Part shown: one piece after another, positions 5,877-64,000 of the stretch
How the letters are laid out: the number at the start of each line of letters is the position of its first letter
Numbering within the stretch: position 1 is the stretch's first letter
Assembly: GCF_009834535.1 (NCBI RefSeq)
Contig: NC_045696.1
Coordinates: forward strand, 32,924,001-32,988,000
DNA from: Camelus ferus
Lineage: Eukaryota
Length of the DNA stretch: 64,000 bases
Reading direction: 5' to 3'
Notes under the pieces: generated by a model
What the model was told of the DNA's origin: nothing
Seen by the model: the letters and a program-made list of their open reading frames with translations, nothing else
Database searches by the model: none
Program-made: the position numbers and the translations under genes

Positions 5877-6055
5877 GCCAGAACCTGTTTTGTGGACGAA
5901 GGATGGTGGAGAATTACCGGATCCTGACCGAATGGTTGTGAGCGGTAGGGAGCTAAACATTCTTTTCCTCAACAAAACGGATAATGGTACATATCGATGT
6001 GAAGCCACAAACACCATTGGCCAAAGCAGCGCAGAGTACGTTCTCATTGTACATG
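5877..6055 (+). CDS. CADM2: CADM2 internal exon (179 nt), C-terminal half of the third Ig-like domain: PEPVLWTKDGGELPDPDRMVVSGRELNILFLNKTDNGTYRCEATNTIGQSSAEYVLIVH
   Basis: Acceptor ...ccaatAG at 5875-5876 and donor CATG|GTGAGT at 6056. Ig hallmarks: core Trp (LWTK) and D-x-G-x-Y-x-C (DNGTYRC), plus sequons NKT and NGT. I recognise the peptide as CADM2. It lies inside ORF-track entry 5848..6138. Confidence 0.97.
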
Positions 6056-23209: not shown

Positions 23210-23329
23210 ATGTTCCCAACACTTTGCCTCCCACTACTATCATCCCCTCCCTTACCACTGCAACAGTCACAACCACTGTAGCCATAACAACCAGCCCAAC
23301 CACATCTGCAACAACCAGCAACATAAGAG
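23210..23329 (+). CDS. CADM2: CADM2 alternatively spliced mucin-like stalk exon (120 nt, phase 1-1): DVPNTLPPTTIIPSLTTATVTTTVAITTSPTTSATTSNIR
   Basis: Long U-rich tract, then ...actcaccAG at 23208-23209; donor AGAG|GTACAG at 23330. The frame is open and 19/40 residues are Thr/Ser. It matches the CADM2 juxtamembrane stalk segment as I recall it. The ORF track shows only its antisense (22980..23324). Confidence 0.93.
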
Positions 23330-47489: not shown

Positions 47490-48790
47490 GAAAGAGCAAT
47501 CAGTAAAAGATAATGTAAAAACATGATTACAAATTATTTTCACTGGCACTAATTCAGTAATTCTAGAATACAATGACAATAGAAGAAAAAAATTAAGTGG
47601 CAATATAAACAATATTTAGAAATAAATGAGTCAAACATAAAGAATAAACCTTCAATTAAAAACTACTTAGAAAACAGCAGACTTATGAAATACGTAAGCA
47701 CTGTCTGAAATGTTATTCACAGGAAAATTCAAGCACTGAACATCTTCATTGGGAGAAAGAAAGAAAGGGAGGGAGGGAGTTAGAGAGGAAGGAAGGAAGG
47801 GAAGAAGAAAGGAAAAAAGACAGGAAGATGCAAATCTTAGAATATAATCAGAAAAAAATTTAATATAATAAAGTATAATAAAGGAAATAAAAGCAGAAAT
47901 TAACTAATTAGAGAGTAGGCCATAGGACTGATAAAGTCAGCAAAGAAGCCAATAAAGCTTTCAGACCACTAATTAATCCTTTCAAGAAAAAAAAATCATT
48001 AATATATGAAATTAATGAAGAGAATAAAGATTTCCAATAAAGACAAGATTAAAACAATTAAAAGAAAATGCACTCCATAACTCATAAAGATTTGAGAAAC
48101 TGTATGTAATAAGTATGTTTCTAGGAAAATATAAATTATAAAAATCTATTTAGTAGAAAATGTAAATAAATTTCTAGATACTGTGAAGGGATGTGCTTTT
48201 TATTATAGGCCTGTCAATTATATCAAAACTCAAAGAAATAGATGCTCTTTTTAAACACATCCCAAGCACAGAGGAAAAAGCAAAGATTTTTATTTCTTTT
48301 TATATAATGCCAGCAAAATATCAGTGGTAAAGTCTTATAAAGATAGCACAGAGGAAAAAAAAACTGGGAAATCAAATTTAATTTGTAAATATTGATGCAA
48401 AAATCTTAAATGAAATACTAGCAAAAATAAATCGGTAATATGTTAAAATAATCATATGCTTTAACAAAGTTAATTTATTATCAATAATTAAATATTAAAC
48501 TTTGGTTTGATATTAAGAAATCCATTTATATAATTAACCATATTAATAGGTAGTGAGAAATTCAGTAAAGTGAAAGATTACAAAGTTCAAAATTTAACAG
48601 CCTAGAAAACATAATGAAAGTTTACAGCCTTTTAATTGTAACAAGAATTGTGTATAGAACCTTAGAGAAAAATATTAATGCCATATACACTTTAGAGGAA
48701 CCCAAATGAACTGAATAAATAGAAAGATATACTTTAATGTTGAATAGAAATATAAAATATTATATAAATGTTAGCATATATTATTTTTTA
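47490..48790 (+). mobile_element. Ancient L1 ORF2 remnant, sense orientation
   Basis: A-rich strand; 48388-48423 translates NIDAKILNEILA, the conserved L1 ORF2 motif (NIDAKILNKILAN). No long intact frame remains. Confidence 0.75.
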
Positions 48791-49015
48791 TTTTTAGTCT
48801 GTGACTCTATAAAAAATGTAGCAATCAGCATTCTGTTAAAAGAGCAATCAGTAAAAGATAATGTAAAAAGATGATTACAAATTATTTTCACTGGCACTAA
48901 TTCAAAAATTCTAGAATATAATGACAATAGAAGAAAAAAATTAAGTGGCAATATAAACAATATTTAGAAATAAACAAGTCAAACATAAAGAATAAACCTT
49001 CAATTAAAAATTACT
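47491..49015 (+). repeat. Dispersed direct duplication, 177 bp: 47491-47667 and 48839-49015
   Basis: Manual ungapped alignment gives 170/177 identical. Confidence 0.95.
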
Positions 49016-55000: not shown

Positions 55001-56619
55001 AAGTAAAAGGATTGATCATCATTCATTTTAAAGTATGTTTTAGAGATTTTTCAATTTAATTGTCCAGTGTAGTTCCCTCACCTTGCTCCTCCCATTTCAC
55101 TCTTCTTTCCATAGCATTAGTTTATTCCTTTAGATTTTGTTGGATAACATTGAAATATTTATATACAACATACTTACTTCTGTTGAGTTTAAAGCATCTT
55201 CCAGGCAGTGTGTGTCACATATCAGAATGCATGAGTTTATCCCTATGATACAATGTTATTTATAATCCAAAGTAAAATGAGGGGGGGAAAAACCCTTACA
55301 CCCACAGTAGAGAGGAGATGATCATTTTTCATCCATCTTTTCATTGTGTTTATCATAAATCATTTTAGGACACACCTTTTCAATGCATAGCTGCTCTTAA
55401 TTAGACATATTGTCACAGGAAGTCTCATTTTCTTTTTGAGTGTTGCCACCAGCAGCAAAACATCCATTTCCTTATAATTGATTTTCAAGTTTATTTAAAA
55501 TGCTCCATGAGGCATAGCATAAGTGAAATGACTCATCATGTTTATGGGAATATCTTGAGGATAAAAGTTATCTTTGAGTGATTTTAGCGTATTAAATGTA
55601 AAATAGAAACATAGTTCTTTAAAATCTATTTTAAAATAGTTTTTACTGTATAGCTTTTAATTTTGGGGTTTTTTTTTTCAATTTTTAAATTACTGCTCTT
55701 TATAATAATATTAGTAGTCAATTCCAAAAACATCAATGAGAGGATCTATATGAATTAAATACTAGGCTAGGCTTTAGGAATGTACAAGAAAGTGAAAATT
55801 GACTTGTTCTCTCAGGAGCATCCCAAAGCAGTTTGGTAAATATCCATATCATCATATTATTGCAAAGAGGTTCAAAAGACCCAGGATACAGGTCATTCCC
55901 TCTACCTTATTTTAGAAAATTTTAATTCCTATGTTCTTTGATCAAAGAACTCACAGTCCATTTTGAAAAGTTAACATCTAGATACCAAGTTGTAATCCAA
56001 TGAATTTCTTTTCTAGAAATACTGTGTGTCTCACAAAGTTGAATTTCATTAACTTCATATAAAAATGTATATAGCAACAGCAAAGTAATGTTTTATGTTG
56101 ACTTTGTAAATGATTATGGAGAAGCAACCTACAGAACTACATGTGAATAATAAAGGGTGATTGTAGTATTTGAGTTAAAATAATCCTTTTGTGTAATATA
56201 TACTTACATACAAAAGTAGATTCAGTTACTCATTTAACAAATATTTGAGATGTAAGTCTTATAAATAACAGAAAAATGAGTAAGGCATTATTAATTACTT
56301 TCAAATAGTTTCCAATCTAATAAAGAGAAGCATAGCTAGCAATCACTATAAAAGTGAATTTTAAAATATCAAGAACCATAAGAGAAAATTGTTTGCAAAA
56401 TGCATAGCAGGTCACATAAAAGAGATTCAGACATTGTTCTAACATTATTTCCCAAAATGTATTTTCTTCTTTCATCCTTCTTCTTTTCTTAATACAAAGG
56501 CTCTTTGGAGCCAGGGTAGTGAAACTTACAACCTGCATATTTTACTATTTCCTATCCCTTTTATATATCTCAAACTACCTCTAGGTACTTTCAAATGGGT
56601 TAAACAGCTTGAAGACAAC

Positions 56620-56840
56620 TGTTACAGAGGAAAGAACATAAGCTGTGAAGCCTGACATAGCTGGATTAAAATCTTCATTTTTATATTGTAGCTGAGTGAG
56701 CAAGTTATATAATTTTCTTAACCATCAGTATTCTTATCTGTAAATTGGGGTAATCATTACCTCACTTGGATTAAATTATAGAAAACACCTATAGTACCCA
56801 ATACAATGTTCCAGTACATTAATGGCTGCTCCTCAATAGC
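56620..56840 (+). mobile_element. MIR SINE
   Basis: tagctgagtgagcaagttat...catcagtattcttatctgtaaattggggtaatcattacctcac. Confidence 0.7.
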
Positions 56841-56849
56841 ATGATTTTT

Positions 56850-57450
56850 ATCTCAGAGATATGAAAAAAGGATGAGTAGAGTCCTGACAACTGCAGTGGG
56901 GACTGGCTATGGGTGGATAAGGATACAATGAATTGTGGGAGCCATGTTGAAAAGCATGAGAAAGAGGCAGAAGATGAAATCCCCCTATGCCAGCTAGACT
57001 GGAAAATAAAAGCTTTGATGTCGAATAGAGGGAAATAAGCCTGGAGAGGATGAGTTTTGGAACATTCTTGTGATGAGTCTTAAATGCCACACCAACAAGA
57101 GATACTTAACTTCCTGGGCAATGGAGAACAATTGAGTATTTTTGGATGGAGAAGTGACATGATCATAATTGTGCTTTGAGCACATTAAATTTGTAATTGG
57201 CCTTTGAACAAAAGAGTGGAGAGAGTCTAAAGGCTGAGAGGCAATTTAAGATATGATTGTTCAAGTCAAAGAAAATGAGGATCTGGCATAGACTGGGGAC
57301 ATAGCAGAAAAGAGGAAGCTAATAGTATGGGAATGAATTAAAAGAATTTAATAGGTTGTTATTTATAGAGAACAAAGGAAAAGGAATATATTTTTAAATG
57401 CTGACAAGAAGCAGGAGAGAGGTAGTGTTATAAGATAATAGGATTTATTT
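56850..57450 (-). mobile_element. Degenerate LINE-2 fragment
   Basis: gggcaatggagaacaattgagtatttttg...aagtgacatgatcataattgtgcttt is typical antisense L2. Confidence 0.65.
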
Positions 57451-58589
57451 TGGAAAAATATTTAAATGGTGGTTGCCATTTCTTCTCAACACTCATCACT
57501 TTTCTTGGGCCAAGGATAATGGGAACAGGGAAAAGGTTCTTTGTCTCAATTCATCAACTTATTAATGAGTAAATAAAGGTTGAGAGGGTAAGTGGCTTGC
57601 CATTGTTCCCTCAGCTAATAAAAAGATTTTAAATTTCTGGATTCTAGACCACAACTATATTCATTACTCTGGGTTGGCTGTTAACATTCCAGAGAACATC
57701 TCAAGAGAAAATGCCTAGCATTATACTGATATTTGAAACTTGTATTTGGACTTTGGAGAGGTAAATTGTTATATGAGTCACCGACACGGAATCTACAGTC
57801 ATAGGGATAACATTGCCAGGAAAATGAGTACTAAGGGAGAGGCTATTTGAAGTTACATTATTGAGGAAGATGTATTTTTAGAAAGTAGCAGTGGAGAAAC
57901 AAAGAAAAAAGAATTGAATCTTGTTGATAAAAGGTAATTTAAAATGAGACAGATTTGTAAGTTAAGGAAGGAGAAAACAAAAAAAAATAAGAGTGATAAA
58001 GAGAGGTTTAATGGATAAGGGTTAAGAAATATCACTTGTTTTGGACTAGCTATTCCAAGAAGACGTTTGAGAGGATGTTTTTATTTTACTAATAGGAGAT
58101 GAAAGCAAAATTTAGTTCCTATTATAGTGGCCTGAAACATGGAGACAGAGAATACTTGTGCTGAATTATAGTGATACATTTTGGAATTGAGTTGCTGTTT
58201 ACAGGCATCATAAGAGAGAAGATTTGAATAGTCTTATAAAGAAAAAATGTCGCTGTTGAAATCTTGGAACCAGCTAACAAAAATGACCAATTTCAGTTTT
58301 TCTCTTTTCTGGATAAACACCTGGTGCTCTTAAGGACATTTCTAGCTCTGAAATTCAATGTGAATTGTAGTGATTATGATTTACTGTGCTTTTCTGCTGA
58401 AGAATTTCTCATTTACTGTTCCTTGGGACATCTGTCCATATCACATGATGTGGCAATTAAATACCAATGTCAAAGAAATTGTTTGACATACATTCAAATT
58501 TGACCACACAGGTGAGCGGGAGTTCAGTCACTGAGTTCTTGCTTTATAAGCCCAGAAACTCAGTTTCACCACATTGTTCACAGGTGATA

Positions 58590-59157
58590 AAACTGACTGT
58601 AAGAGGCAACACTGTAAGGGTTGAGAACATGTCTTCTTTGACTTTAAACCTAACACAGGGTCTTGAAAACAGAAGGCATTCATGAATGAATAAATAGATG
58701 AATGAAGGCATAGAACGTATATTTATCTATGCCTTAATGCACAGGTAATAATTTGTTTTTTTAAACCGTGTGAAGAAACTAGTATTTTAGATTTCAAATC
58801 TTTAGAAAATACTTTAAAAACTCGTGATGTGGTCAGTAAAACAAAAGTTACGGTATTAGTGTAAATCTTCTAGGTGTGTTGAACGAACATTTTAGGAAAA
58901 ATACTAAAGCAGAGATAGACATAATTAAGCTAAAAAAATCATTAATTACCCTGGATCATAACAGAGAGCTTATTGTGGACAATTTCTTAAATGAGAAGGG
59001 GAGGAAATCATAATGATAGATATGACTTAATGTATGTTGGGGACAGGGAGAGAAGAGGGTTGGATGAATGCCTTCTGTTTTCAAGACCCTGTGTTAGGTT
59101 TAAAGTCAAAGAAGACATGTTCTCAACCCTTACAGTGTTGCCTCTTACAGTCAGTTT
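58590..59157. repeat. Perfect 94-bp inverted repeat: arms 58590-58683 and 59064-59157, 380-bp spacer
   Basis: The reverse complement of the left arm matches the right arm at 94/94 positions (checked base by base). Confidence 0.97.
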
Positions 59158-60019
59158 GATGTAAGCAATCTTATCAACTTAGATATTTTCTATTCTCTAT
59201 ATGTGAATGAAAAGTCATTCCTCCATTGTTATTGAGTTTGACTAAATTTATAGTTTTGGGGTGGACATTGAGTAAAATTCACAAACCAAATTAGCAACAT
59301 ATAGACACTGTGATATTATGGCTTTTATATATTTCACAAAGAAAGCTCAAATATCCCTTTCATCTAATTTGAGATATAGAAGGCCACTGAAATTTTCCTG
59401 AATAAAACTGTTGGTAATTTGTCTGCCAGTTATCAAACGGGTACATAAAGTTTAAAAAACAGCTGGTTTTTCAAAGGACATCTGTGTTATGGCTAGACTA
59501 GACATTAAGTATTTAGTAAACAATGCTATAAAATATAAACTAGGCTTTTAAAGGATAAAAGTTTCTTCCTTGTCTTACCAATTGTTATAATAAAATGGAG
59601 CAAACAGCAATAACTAAAAGGAAATTTTTAATGCACTTCAGATGTGCCTTTTCTGATGTAGCTATAAAGTATATTAATAGCTTTGAAGAAATTAAAGTCA
59701 ATGAACTATATATATATATATAACCTTGTAGTAAAAGCATAAGATGGAATTGCTTTAACTCTATACTTATAACTATAAATGATAAGAATTTGTTATCATT
59801 TGATAATTCAGATGTGACCAAAAGATGATATTCTGATCAATTACTGGTTTGGAGCTGTACTTTGAAATGAAGCTCACATGCCCTTGATTTTACATTTAGA
59901 ACTTAGATTTTGTAAGAACACTAACTGGGCAATTAAATATATTCAAATATTTTGTAAACCATTTATTCAGAGCTAACTGTAATTTATATGAAATAATGAA
60001 TTTTTTTCTAAACTCCCCT

Positions 60020-62050
60020 TAAAACCACCCCCACCTTTCTCATTCCCTGCGGATTAACTTATCTCTTATTTTCCCCCAAATACTGAGGTTCTTTGATGAA
60101 ATGTTTCTTTATTTTCTTTGTATGTAAAATCATACTATATCAATCTCTTTCTTCTTATCTGATCTTATCTCTCATTTAAAAATAAAACTCTTTCAACTCC
60201 TTTATTCCTTAATGTCTGCTGCCATCTCATCTTTTCTCTCCACTCTCACAGCGCAAATATCCTCACCTTCTACTCGCCTCAGAACTCAGTGGTTCCTGAT
60301 AGACTTGGGCACCACTCCACAACCAACTTACATGACAAAGTCACCAAGGACTCCTGTGGTCCTAAACTTCATGATCTTTATCTTAACAAAATTTGTCAAA
60401 CTTTCCTACCTAAGTATTCAAGTATATATGAACTTTTCTAAGTGTAAACACATGTATCAAGTTGCTTTGTAGATAATAGGTAAATAAACCCTGTTGTAAG
60501 ACAAGACATTTTTTGAAGACTTGGTTTTGATTATATTTTTTACATAAAACACAACGTTCTTTCTTATGAATTTCTGGATTGATCAGTTGATGATACAAGA
60601 AGATATATTTCCCCCCCTGGCATTTGCTGTACTGATAGCTGATGAATATATTTGCATAAGTTTGGGAAGTTTTGTTTTAGCTGATCTTTCAGTGACATTC
60701 TTAAATATTCTTGAATATTCTGTACTTGTGTTATGTGAAAAAACACTTTTTTGTCTTCCAATCTCTCTAACATCTCTTAGTCTTCCTTGTGGGCTTCTAA
60801 TCCACTTTATATCTTCAAGTTTATATTCTTGTCCTTTTGTCTTTTCACTTCATCCCGGTGGAGACCATCTAGTTTAGTAGTTTCAGTGAGAATCACTGTA
60901 TGAATTACTCTCTATTTCCAATGTAGAACTTTCTGATGAGCTCCAGCTTTGTATGCTCAGTTATCCAGTAGAAGTTGACACTATTCTATAGATAATACTC
61001 CGTATGTCCTGAAACAGACTCATTGACCCTACTCCAGATTTACACTACCTCCTATATTGTGTCTCCTCACTTATCTGCTCTGAGTTTAGGTTTTTAATCT
61101 GCAAAGTAAAGATAATGAAACCTACTTCACACAAATGTATTAAAAGAGAAAATATATGTAGTATATTTTTTAAAGTGTCTGGCAGATGCTAAATACTCAA
61201 ATAGTTGAAATCTCGTTAACATTATTATTAATTACAGGGACTATATCTTGTGTATTACTGGGTCAAACATGTTGCCTGATACAGTTAAGGTTCTCTAAAA
61301 ATATTATTAGAGTGAATAACAGTAAATAAATGCATCAATACTGGTCTGAGAAGAAACAGCAACCACAAAAAAATTTTTTTTTCCTAACATCAAGTCCAAG
61401 ATCTCTGCCCCTGATGGAATCCCCGTAATTTCTCTCAGACACTGATCCCTTAATCATCCCCTTTACAGCTCGTATCTTCCAGTTCTCCATAATAACTCCT
61501 TTGGTGTTACCCTTAAATTATTTTCTGATTTCTCCTATTGCAAAATGCCCTAGGTCAACCTACCAATCTTCCTAGCTAGAATTCTACATTTTCCATGCCC
61601 CTGAAAAGCCTTGATACACTGAGTTTGTACCCACTGAAAATTTGTCACTCACTCATTTTAACCTTCTAATCAACTTTGGATCATTACCTCTCATCCCCAG
61701 TTCTCCAGGGAATCCACTGGTCTTTTTATAGTTACTGACCTTTACCGTTCAGTGTTATTTGATAACTTTTGACAAACACTTCTTTTTTATACTATTCTTC
61801 TTGATAATGATCTAAGCATCTTCCTGGGTTTTCTACTAAGGTTTTGACCGCTATATTAGCATCTTTTCCTACTTCCTGTTGCTAAATTTCTTCTGCTTCC
61901 CTCTCTACAATCTCTCCTTTAATTTCAACATCATGGCAATCAGACATCCTTTTCTTTAGTCTAAATCTCTCTCCAAAGTGTTACATTCAACTGCCACATC
62001 TCTGGTTAAACAATCTCCAGAACTCCAAAATTAGTATGGATGAAATTGAT
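60020..62050 (+). mobile_element. Degenerate LINE-2 fragments, with a MIR at about 61060-61230
   Basis: Pyrimidine-rich sense L2-like sequence (caaagtcaccaaggactcctgtggtcctaa; ttctgatgagctccag; tgataacttttgacaaacacttc). Confidence 0.55.
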
Positions 62051-62531: not shown

Positions 62532-64000
62532 TTTTTTTTTCTTTTTCTAAGTAGAGTTGATTTACAATATTGTGTTAGTTTCAAGTGTACAACAAAGTGA
62601 TCCAGCTATACATATATTTTTTCCAGTTCTTTTCCTTATAGGATATTACAAGATTTTGGATATAGTTCCCTGTGCTGTACAGTAAATACTTACCACTTAT
62701 CTATTTTCTATATAGTGGTATGTATCTGTTAAACCCATACTCCTAATTTATCCCTCTCCCGCTTTCTCCTTTGGTAACCATAAATTTGTTTTCTATGTCT
62801 GTGAGTCTGTTTCTGTTTTGCAAATAAGTTCATTTGCATTGTCTTTTAGATTCCACATATAAGTGATATCACTTAATATTTGCCTTTCTCTGGATGACTT
62901 TACTTGGTAGGATAATCTCTAGATCCATCCAGGTTGCTACAAATGACAACATTTCATTCTTTTTTATGGCTGAGTAATATTCTACTGTATGTATATACTA
63001 CATCTTCTTTATCCATTCATCCATCAGTGAATATTTAGATTGCTTCTATGTTTTTGCTATTGTAAATAGTGGTGCTATGAACATTGGGGTACCTGTATCT
63101 TTTAAAATTAGTTTTTATCTTTTTTGGGTATATGCACAGGAGTGGGATTGCTGGATCATATGGTAACTCTATTTTTATTTTTTTTAAGAAACATCTGTAC
63201 TGTTTTCACAGTGGCTGTATCAATCTACATTCCTACTGACAGTTTAGGAGGATTCCCTTTTCTCCACACCCTCTCCAACATTTATCATTTGTAGAATTTT
63301 TGATGATGGCCATTCTGACTGGTGTGATGTGATACCTCATGGTAGTTTTGATTTGCATTTCTCCAATAGTTAGGAATGTTGAGCATCTTTTCATGTGCCT
63401 GTTGGCCACCTGAATGTCTTCTTTGGAGAAATGTCCATTCAGGTCCTCTGCCCGTTTTCTGATTGGGTTGTCTGGGGTTTTTTTTATATTGAGCTGTATG
63501 AGCTGTTTTATATTTTGGAAATTAACCCCTTTTTGGTCACATCATTTACAAATATTTTCTCCCATTTCATAGGTTGTCTTTTCACTTTGTTTATGGTTCC
63601 CTTTGCTGTGCAAACGCTTAAAAGTTTCACAAGGTCCCACTTATTTATTTTTGCTTTTATTTCTTTTATCTTGGGAGACTGATTTAAGAAAATATTGCTA
63701 CAATTTATGTCAGAGAATGATTTGCCAGTGTTCTCTTTTAGGAGTTTTATGGTCTCATGTCTTATATTTAAGTCTTTAAGTCATTTTGTTTATTTTTGTA
63801 TATAGTGTGAGGAAGTATTCCAACTTCATTGATTTACATGCCAATGTCCAGCCTTCTCAACACCACTTAATGAAGAGACTGTTTTTTCTCTATTGTATAT
63901 TCTTGCCTCTTTTGTCGAAGATTAATTGACCGTAGGTAGTGGTTTATCTCTGGGCTCTCTCTTTTGTTCCTTTTATCTGTATGTCTGTTTTTTGTCAATA
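62532..64000 (-). mobile_element. L1 3' end (poly-A tail, 3'UTR, disrupted ORF2 C-terminus), running off the window; cetartiodactyl-type 3'UTR
   Basis: T-run at 62532. The minus strand near 63260-63390 translates [46 protein letters not shown], the L1 ORF2 Cys-rich region. 3'UTR words include gttgatttacaat and atatagttccctgtgct. Confidence 0.93.

Follow-up and report, generated by a model that had tools for sequence, protein, structure and literature searches.

The DNA analysed here is a single stretch of 64 kb, called the window throughout, which contains two exons of CADM2, an adhesion gene of the brain, and, far downstream of them, an inverted repeat with identical arms. The gene had been named by an earlier reading made from the letters only, and this name was confirmed by the exon encoding the third Ig domain, through its identity to named CADM2 proteins; searches of the PDB and of the Atlas returned a generic Ig domain only. 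The second exon is rich in threonine and carries LPPTT at a site where the sequence is LLPTT in P0029 and LLSTT in P0028. The transmembrane exon, next in the named proteins, is absent from the window. The left arm of the repeat starts 35,261 nt downstream of the threonine-rich exon, and the repeat therefore lies on the sense strand of what is presumed to be the next CADM2 intron; calling it intronic, as the earlier reading did, assumes that the gene runs past the end of the window. Among the papers listed by a literature search on CADM2, introns and inverted repeats, none concerned this locus, as judged by titles and the openings of abstracts. The features on which the analysis is based are the following.

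5877..6055, plus strand: CADM2 exon encoding the third Ig domain, matching named CADM2 proteins with 100% identity along 59 amino acids.
23210..23329, plus strand: threonine-rich CADM2 exon of 120 nt, found by tblastn of P0028 and P0029; the last exon in the window.
58560..58596, no strand: small hairpin, imperfectly paired, with the opening 7 nt of the left arm as its 3' side (DNA fold of -6.6 kcal/mol).
58590..58683, plus strand: left arm, 94 nt, the likely template; exact reverse complement of the right arm.
58672..58714, plus strand: decayed tandem of period 16 with a GAAT-type tail, spanning the junction of left arm and spacer (TRF, 2.7 copies, 70% matches).
58684..59063, no strand: spacer, 380 nt, unique, with no Rfam family at gathering score.
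59063..59066, plus strand: first copy of GATG, three bases of which double as the inner end of the right arm.
59064..59157, minus strand: right arm, 94 nt, the likely inserted inverted copy.
59158..59161, plus strand: second copy of GATG, immediately after the right arm.

The two arms are identical at 94 of 94 positions and stand 380 nt apart, as had been described from the letters, and the whole unit (arm, spacer and arm) measures 568 nt. Among the 25 longest of the 110 inverted pairs found in the window, this pair is the sole long one that is not a microsatellite, the remaining long pairs being (AT)n runs. When a 6-kb region was shuffled 200 times, the exact inverted matches grew no longer than 22 nt (mean of the longest, 14). 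No third copy of either arm or of the spacer exists within the window, and no Rfam family was found at gathering score across the 64 kb; the ten weak matches around the unit (E up to 10) were all far below their own cut-offs. Exact 21-nt scans of metagenome contigs gave no match either, a result that carries no weight as evidence. The ends of the arms are sharp and the flanks are dissimilar past both of them: anchored extension stayed at background outwards (p from 0.145 to 0.51 in nine settings) and scored 0 inwards in all nine settings, while the 263-nt outer flanks showed no similarity (p 0.41). The two halves of the spacer are unrelated (p 0.74), so that the spacer has no internal symmetry.

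The left arm probably derives, on our assumption, from the 3' end of a LINE-2 (L2), now decayed, in sense orientation, an identity also proposed by the earlier reading. Tool support for it is weak and comes from one resemblance, between 58591-58603 and hsa-miR-708-3p (12 of 14 positions), whose position was chosen once the likeness had been spotted; with the best of three L2c-sense motifs, an equal or higher score is found in 1.25% of 4636 background windows. For the miR-95-5p motif, the left arm does not rise above background (0.29). A profile of L2 3' ends built from 11 hand-picked pieces of the window reached the end of the left arm at E 0.97 and was without power, because it recovered none of 11 held-out seeds at E<0.05. 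In Table 3 of PMC6433296, miR-708-3p is listed as L2c-sense. A separate candidate, the left arm as the 3' half of a MIR, was unsupported: a profile of little power, made from 8-9 copies in the window, missed both arms.

The question of which arm is the older was addressed at the junctions. The earlier reading had noticed that a tail follows the left arm and not the right one, and this was confirmed both by TRF and by counting GAAT. Across the inner end of the left arm the tandem reaches 19 of 27 matches, a value attained by 0.21% of 20000 random flanks, and three GAAT fall within the first 30 nt of the inner flank (0.095% by chance); the inner flank of the right arm gives 14 of 27 matches and zero GAAT. 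Because the old tandem spans their junction, the left arm and the spacer are old neighbours, and the models which make that junction new are therefore removed. Two models fit the tandem: in the notation of the four-point model, either the right arm was inserted (type 3-2-1-4) or the left arm and the spacer were laid down together as a backward copy (type 1-3-4-2). At the left outer junction, profile tests gave no ancestral signal, neither with the MIR-like profile nor with the L2-like one, which had recovered 0 of 11 held-out seeds.

The second mark concerns the right arm, which carries GATG at both of its ends. With a slack of 1 nt, 1045 of 20000 random 94-nt segments do as well, and the chance rises to 13% at 2 nt and to 23% at 3 nt. 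Direct repeats at the left arm or at the whole unit do not exceed 2 nt, and around the whole unit there is no target-site duplication (TSD) of 2-20 nt, with at most 2 nt when a slack of 3 nt is allowed. The sequence-only reading was thus correct in reporting no strict TSD and overlooked the direct repeat flanking the right arm. Since GATG stands on both sides, deletion of 95 nt restores a clean junction. The insertion of the right arm (type 3-2-1-4) is favoured over the type 1-3-4-2 because of this repeat and because the latter requires a fragment of 474 nt; with the tandem on the left only and GATG on the right, the right arm is likely the copy, as had been suggested.

The small hairpin at 58560-58596 was picked post hoc; among 20000 random positions, 0.75% have an inverted match of 7 nt no more than 40 nt away. 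It may mark the place where copying stopped or started, and it can be read under either of the two models. It is the last of three quasi-palindromes in series upstream of the left arm (58467-58489, 58515-58543 and 58560-58596), and the region 58467-58596 may be prone to template switching.

The origin that we consider probable, although well short of certain, is a single template-switch or microhomology-mediated repair event of type 3-2-1-4 which inserted the sequence of the left arm, in inverted orientation, at the place now taken by the right arm. Such an insertion had been raised by the earlier reading and is supported by the sharp ends of the arms, by the tandem on the left only and by GATG. 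During replication or break repair near 59063-59066, a growing strand ending in ATG would have left its template, and the freed end would have paired with a CAT at 58681-58683, its complement, which lies about 380 nt earlier in the sequence. Copying in reverse orientation would have proceeded for 94 nt and halted at 58590, at the edge of the small hairpin, and the strand would then have returned at its departure point or four bases earlier, so that the right arm would have ended up flanked by two GATG. The four-point model would class such an event as type 3-2-1-4 (or 3-2-4-1); in the terms of repair it would be a microhomology-mediated templated insertion, in the germline. The direction of copying is what we infer from a single genome, and the priming by ATG and the role of the hairpin belong to the same reconstruction.

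Events of this kind are well described. In a comparison of human and chimpanzee, types 1-4-3-2 and 3-2-1-4 together made up 31% of 794 events (PMC5453318), and a direct repeat is left behind when point 4 precedes point 1 (PMC7954356). The locus shares with four-point template switches a perfect reverse-complement copy of sequence from close by, abrupt ends, one inverted repeat and possibly the small direct repeat at the return point. It differs from them in its dimensions (94 nt copied from 380 nt away, against a median of 12 nt and templates within 100 nt) and in being known from one genome where the published events have a known ancestral allele. For ape template switches the copied length is reported with a median of 12 nt and a maximum of 128 nt (PMC7954356), for unmasked human sequence the copied lengths are given as reaching 97-180 nt per person (10.1101/2021.11.26.470150), and the published tools demand a template at most 100 nt away (PMC7954356, PMC8421209). 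Paired orientation reversals mostly span less than 400 bp (10.1101/2020.03.06.980458). The copy of 94 nt is thus below the reported maxima (128; 97-180), and the jump of 380 nt is above the 100-nt limit of the screens but below 400 bp. Against the proposed origin, a 94-nt copy made over 380 nt belongs to the far tail of the reported template switches, and the GATG repeat, expected by chance in 5-23% of cases, is a weak sign. The microhomology-mediated templated insertions (MMB-TI) of PMC8421209 offer a second parallel: about 100 germline events of at least 25 bp are reported per person, most with junction microhomology, which was present at 138 of 155 and 135 of 148 junctions in the human germline insertions described there. 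Common to both are an inverted insertion from a nearby template and, putatively, short homology at the junction (here ATG and the GATG repeat); that screen took templates within 100 bp, whereas here the distance is 380 nt and the homology at the junction is part of our reconstruction.

The event was described as recent by the sequence-only reading, and a young age is indeed supported, within a loose bound. The left arm contains zero CpG, and the absence of differences at 94 CpG-free sites limits the pairwise divergence to at most 3.2% (95%). At assumed rates of 2.2-1.0e-9 substitutions per site per year, the event is probably younger than about 7-16 My, and half of the age probability is spent by 1.7-3.7 My. 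A later conversion between the arms would make the event older than this apparent age.

The type 1-3-4-2 is the strongest of the competing explanations, although we consider it unlikely. It holds that the right arm is the original and that this arm and the spacer, 474 nt in all, were copied backwards, so that the left arm is new and the spacer inverted. It fully fits the tandem across the left inner junction, the 7 nt common to the arm and the hairpin 58560-58596 could be the priming homology, and types 1-3-4-2 and 3-1-2-4 account for 23% of the human-chimpanzee events in PMC5453318; inverted repeats are moreover described as flanking microinversions (PMC8755829). Yet the fragment of 474 nt exceeds the longest one reported in 10.1101/2021.11.26.470150 (318 bp), and the GATG repeat is left as chance. 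Under its mirror image, type 3-1-2-4, the new junction would be the left inner one, against which the tandem speaks.

Far less probable is an origin from a pair of old pieces in opposite orientation, such as two L2 ends, recently homogenised by gene conversion or by repeated template switching. The perfect identity within a decayed repeat would be accounted for in this way, the conversion of near-perfect into perfect repeats is described in PMC5453318, and some likeness is seen by eye 10-20 nt outside the arms. This likeness is however at background level in the extension settings (best p 0.145 of nine) and over the outer flanks, and the right arm has neither the tail nor any inward extension. 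Similarity which stops at the ends of the arms argues against conversion within an older and longer repeat, and the conversion alternative put forward by the earlier reading was left unsupported.

We give an equally small chance to an artefact of assembly or polishing, in which the right arm, or its perfect identity, would be absent from the DNA of the animal. In the stretch 56500-61500, 537 words were sampled and their shares recorded in 24 listed runs. Fourteen of these runs hold 0.96-0.97 of the words; they come from six studies, 13 from organism A and one from organism B, and 5 of them carry the mark of a possible source. For the two RNA runs, both from a single study, the shares of this 5-kb stretch are 0.61 and 0.56, where carry-over of DNA is possible, four further runs (X17-X20) give shares from 0.28 to 0.05, and X21-X24 next to none; small-RNA libraries do not figure among the 24. 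Nine of the 14 high-share runs have no mark of possible source, nor do three of the studies (P4, P5 and P6); the 5-kb locus is real. The shares are however blind to the arms, because two junctions amount to 60 of 4907 words, or about 6.6 of those sampled, whereas 3-4% of the 537 sampled words (16-21) are missing from every run, a larger number than two false junctions would remove. Two general properties count against it: an arm of 94 nt is shorter than the usual read length, and fold-back chimeras seldom resume the forward strand as early as after 94 nt. Comparable human events have, in addition, proved real (PMC5453318).

The arms, once transcribed, are predicted to pair. Both the minimum-energy fold and the centroid fold contain this pairing (z -17.7, with 0 of 20 shuffles as extreme); the stem has a mean pair probability of 0.995 in a context of 1.6 kb, and the duplex an energy of -174.6 kcal/mol. 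The stem of 94 bp proposed by the earlier reading is thus supported by the predicted fold, and such a duplex should form in the CADM2 pre-mRNA. The two arms offer 33 and 24 adenosines, 57 in total, and it is fairly probable that ADAR would edit the duplex as a by-product before the intron decays. Most lineage-specific editing sites are considered neutral in PMC4053846.

Whether this RNA has been selected, by giving small RNAs or by steering the splicing or editing of CADM2, is a separate proposition, to which we assign a probability slightly lower again than that of an artefact. The predicted duplex and its z score speak for it, as do the resemblance of the start of the arm to miR-708-3p, the two runs labelled as RNA, subject to the carry-over mentioned above, and the report that at least 18 human miRNAs arose from template switches, mostly in sense introns (10.1101/2023.04.19.537475). 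On the other side, primary miRNAs prefer a stem of about 35 bp, and the screen for miRNAs made by template-switch mutation (TSM) covered stems of 30-55 bp (same source); no Rfam family matches at gathering score, the nearest exon found is 35 kb away, and editing sites of this kind are mostly held to be neutral, as noted. A perfect pairing without compensatory changes is, moreover, uninformative on selection. No exon is bracketed by the arms, and a simple filter applied to 58400-59400 left no acceptor-like site, so that no cryptic exon is evident. Around the left arm, three donor-like motifs (58509, 58581 and 58742) fall within 240 nt, where the intron background is 0.7 per kb. A strong donor-like site in 58509-58545, one of five of its pattern in the 64 kb, stands about 50-80 nt upstream of the left arm, where a 13-bp hairpin relying on several G-U pairs has its foot; under the simple filter this site has no acceptor-like partner.

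The production of a miRNA from the stem is unlikely, because the stem has 94 bp, the loop has 380 nt, the sense piece comes first and no Rfam family is found at gathering score. The precedent of miR-28 and miR-151, invoked by the sequence-only reading, failed on geometry. In miR-28, miR-151a and miR-708 the two L2 pieces overlap each other over about 30 nt, the antisense one lying 5' of the sense one (PMC6433296, Table 1), and the hairpins are common to human and mouse. What the present locus shares with them is two opposed pieces, probably of L2 3' ends, in an intron, and the 12 of 14 positions in common with miR-708-3p; it differs by having sense before antisense, a loop of 380 nt between the pieces, a perfect stem of 94 bp and one arm that is a young copy, and thus it is not a hairpin of primary-miRNA size made of abutting L2 pieces. 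With the miRNA hairpins generated by TSM it has in common a perfect stem created in one step in a sense intron, but it falls outside the 30-55 bp used for them in 10.1101/2023.04.19.537475, through both its stem and its loop. It likewise has the arm-loop-arm anatomy, able to give hairpin RNA, of the entries of LIRBase, where arms above 400 nt are required (PMC8728187), against 94 nt here. That a copying error re-created in one step, within an intron expressed in brain, the sense and antisense L2 3' pair of the miR-28, miR-151 and miR-708 segment, and with it a lineage-specific regulatory RNA at birth, is a far-fetched proposition in our estimation. If true, the duplex would be cut into small RNAs able to target remnants of L2 in 3' UTRs by pairing, or heavy editing would shift the splicing of CADM2.

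Least probable of all is a MITE or another DNA transposon with terminal inverted repeats of 94 bp: the size of 568 nt and the anatomy of arm, spacer and arm would suit it, but no TSD of 2-20 nt surrounds the unit, neither arm nor spacer has a third copy in the 64-kb window, and the left arm continues into the tandem inside the spacer while the right arm has none.

The arrangement looks like an ordinary neutral scar of a slip in DNA copying, and no test pointed to a function. As such it matters little, being one more mid-sized template-switch insertion, although it could serve as a marker in phylogeny and would illustrate the range between the short four-point events and the large inverted duplications. 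It would gain greater weight only if the duplex gave small RNAs or changed the splicing of CADM2.

No tRNA-like match was found in the 64 kb and no young SINE was seen by eye, and the interspersed repeats of the window look to us mostly ancient (MIR and L2). The only other long self-match is a direct duplication, 47491-47667 and 48839-49015, of 177 nt with 7 differences (96%) and 1348 nt between the copies; it lies within an AT-rich, L1-like remnant and is probably an older local copying event. At the end of the window, 62540-64000 carries broken pieces of ORF2 on the minus strand, with no Pfam match, which we take to be the 3' part of an L1 on that strand.
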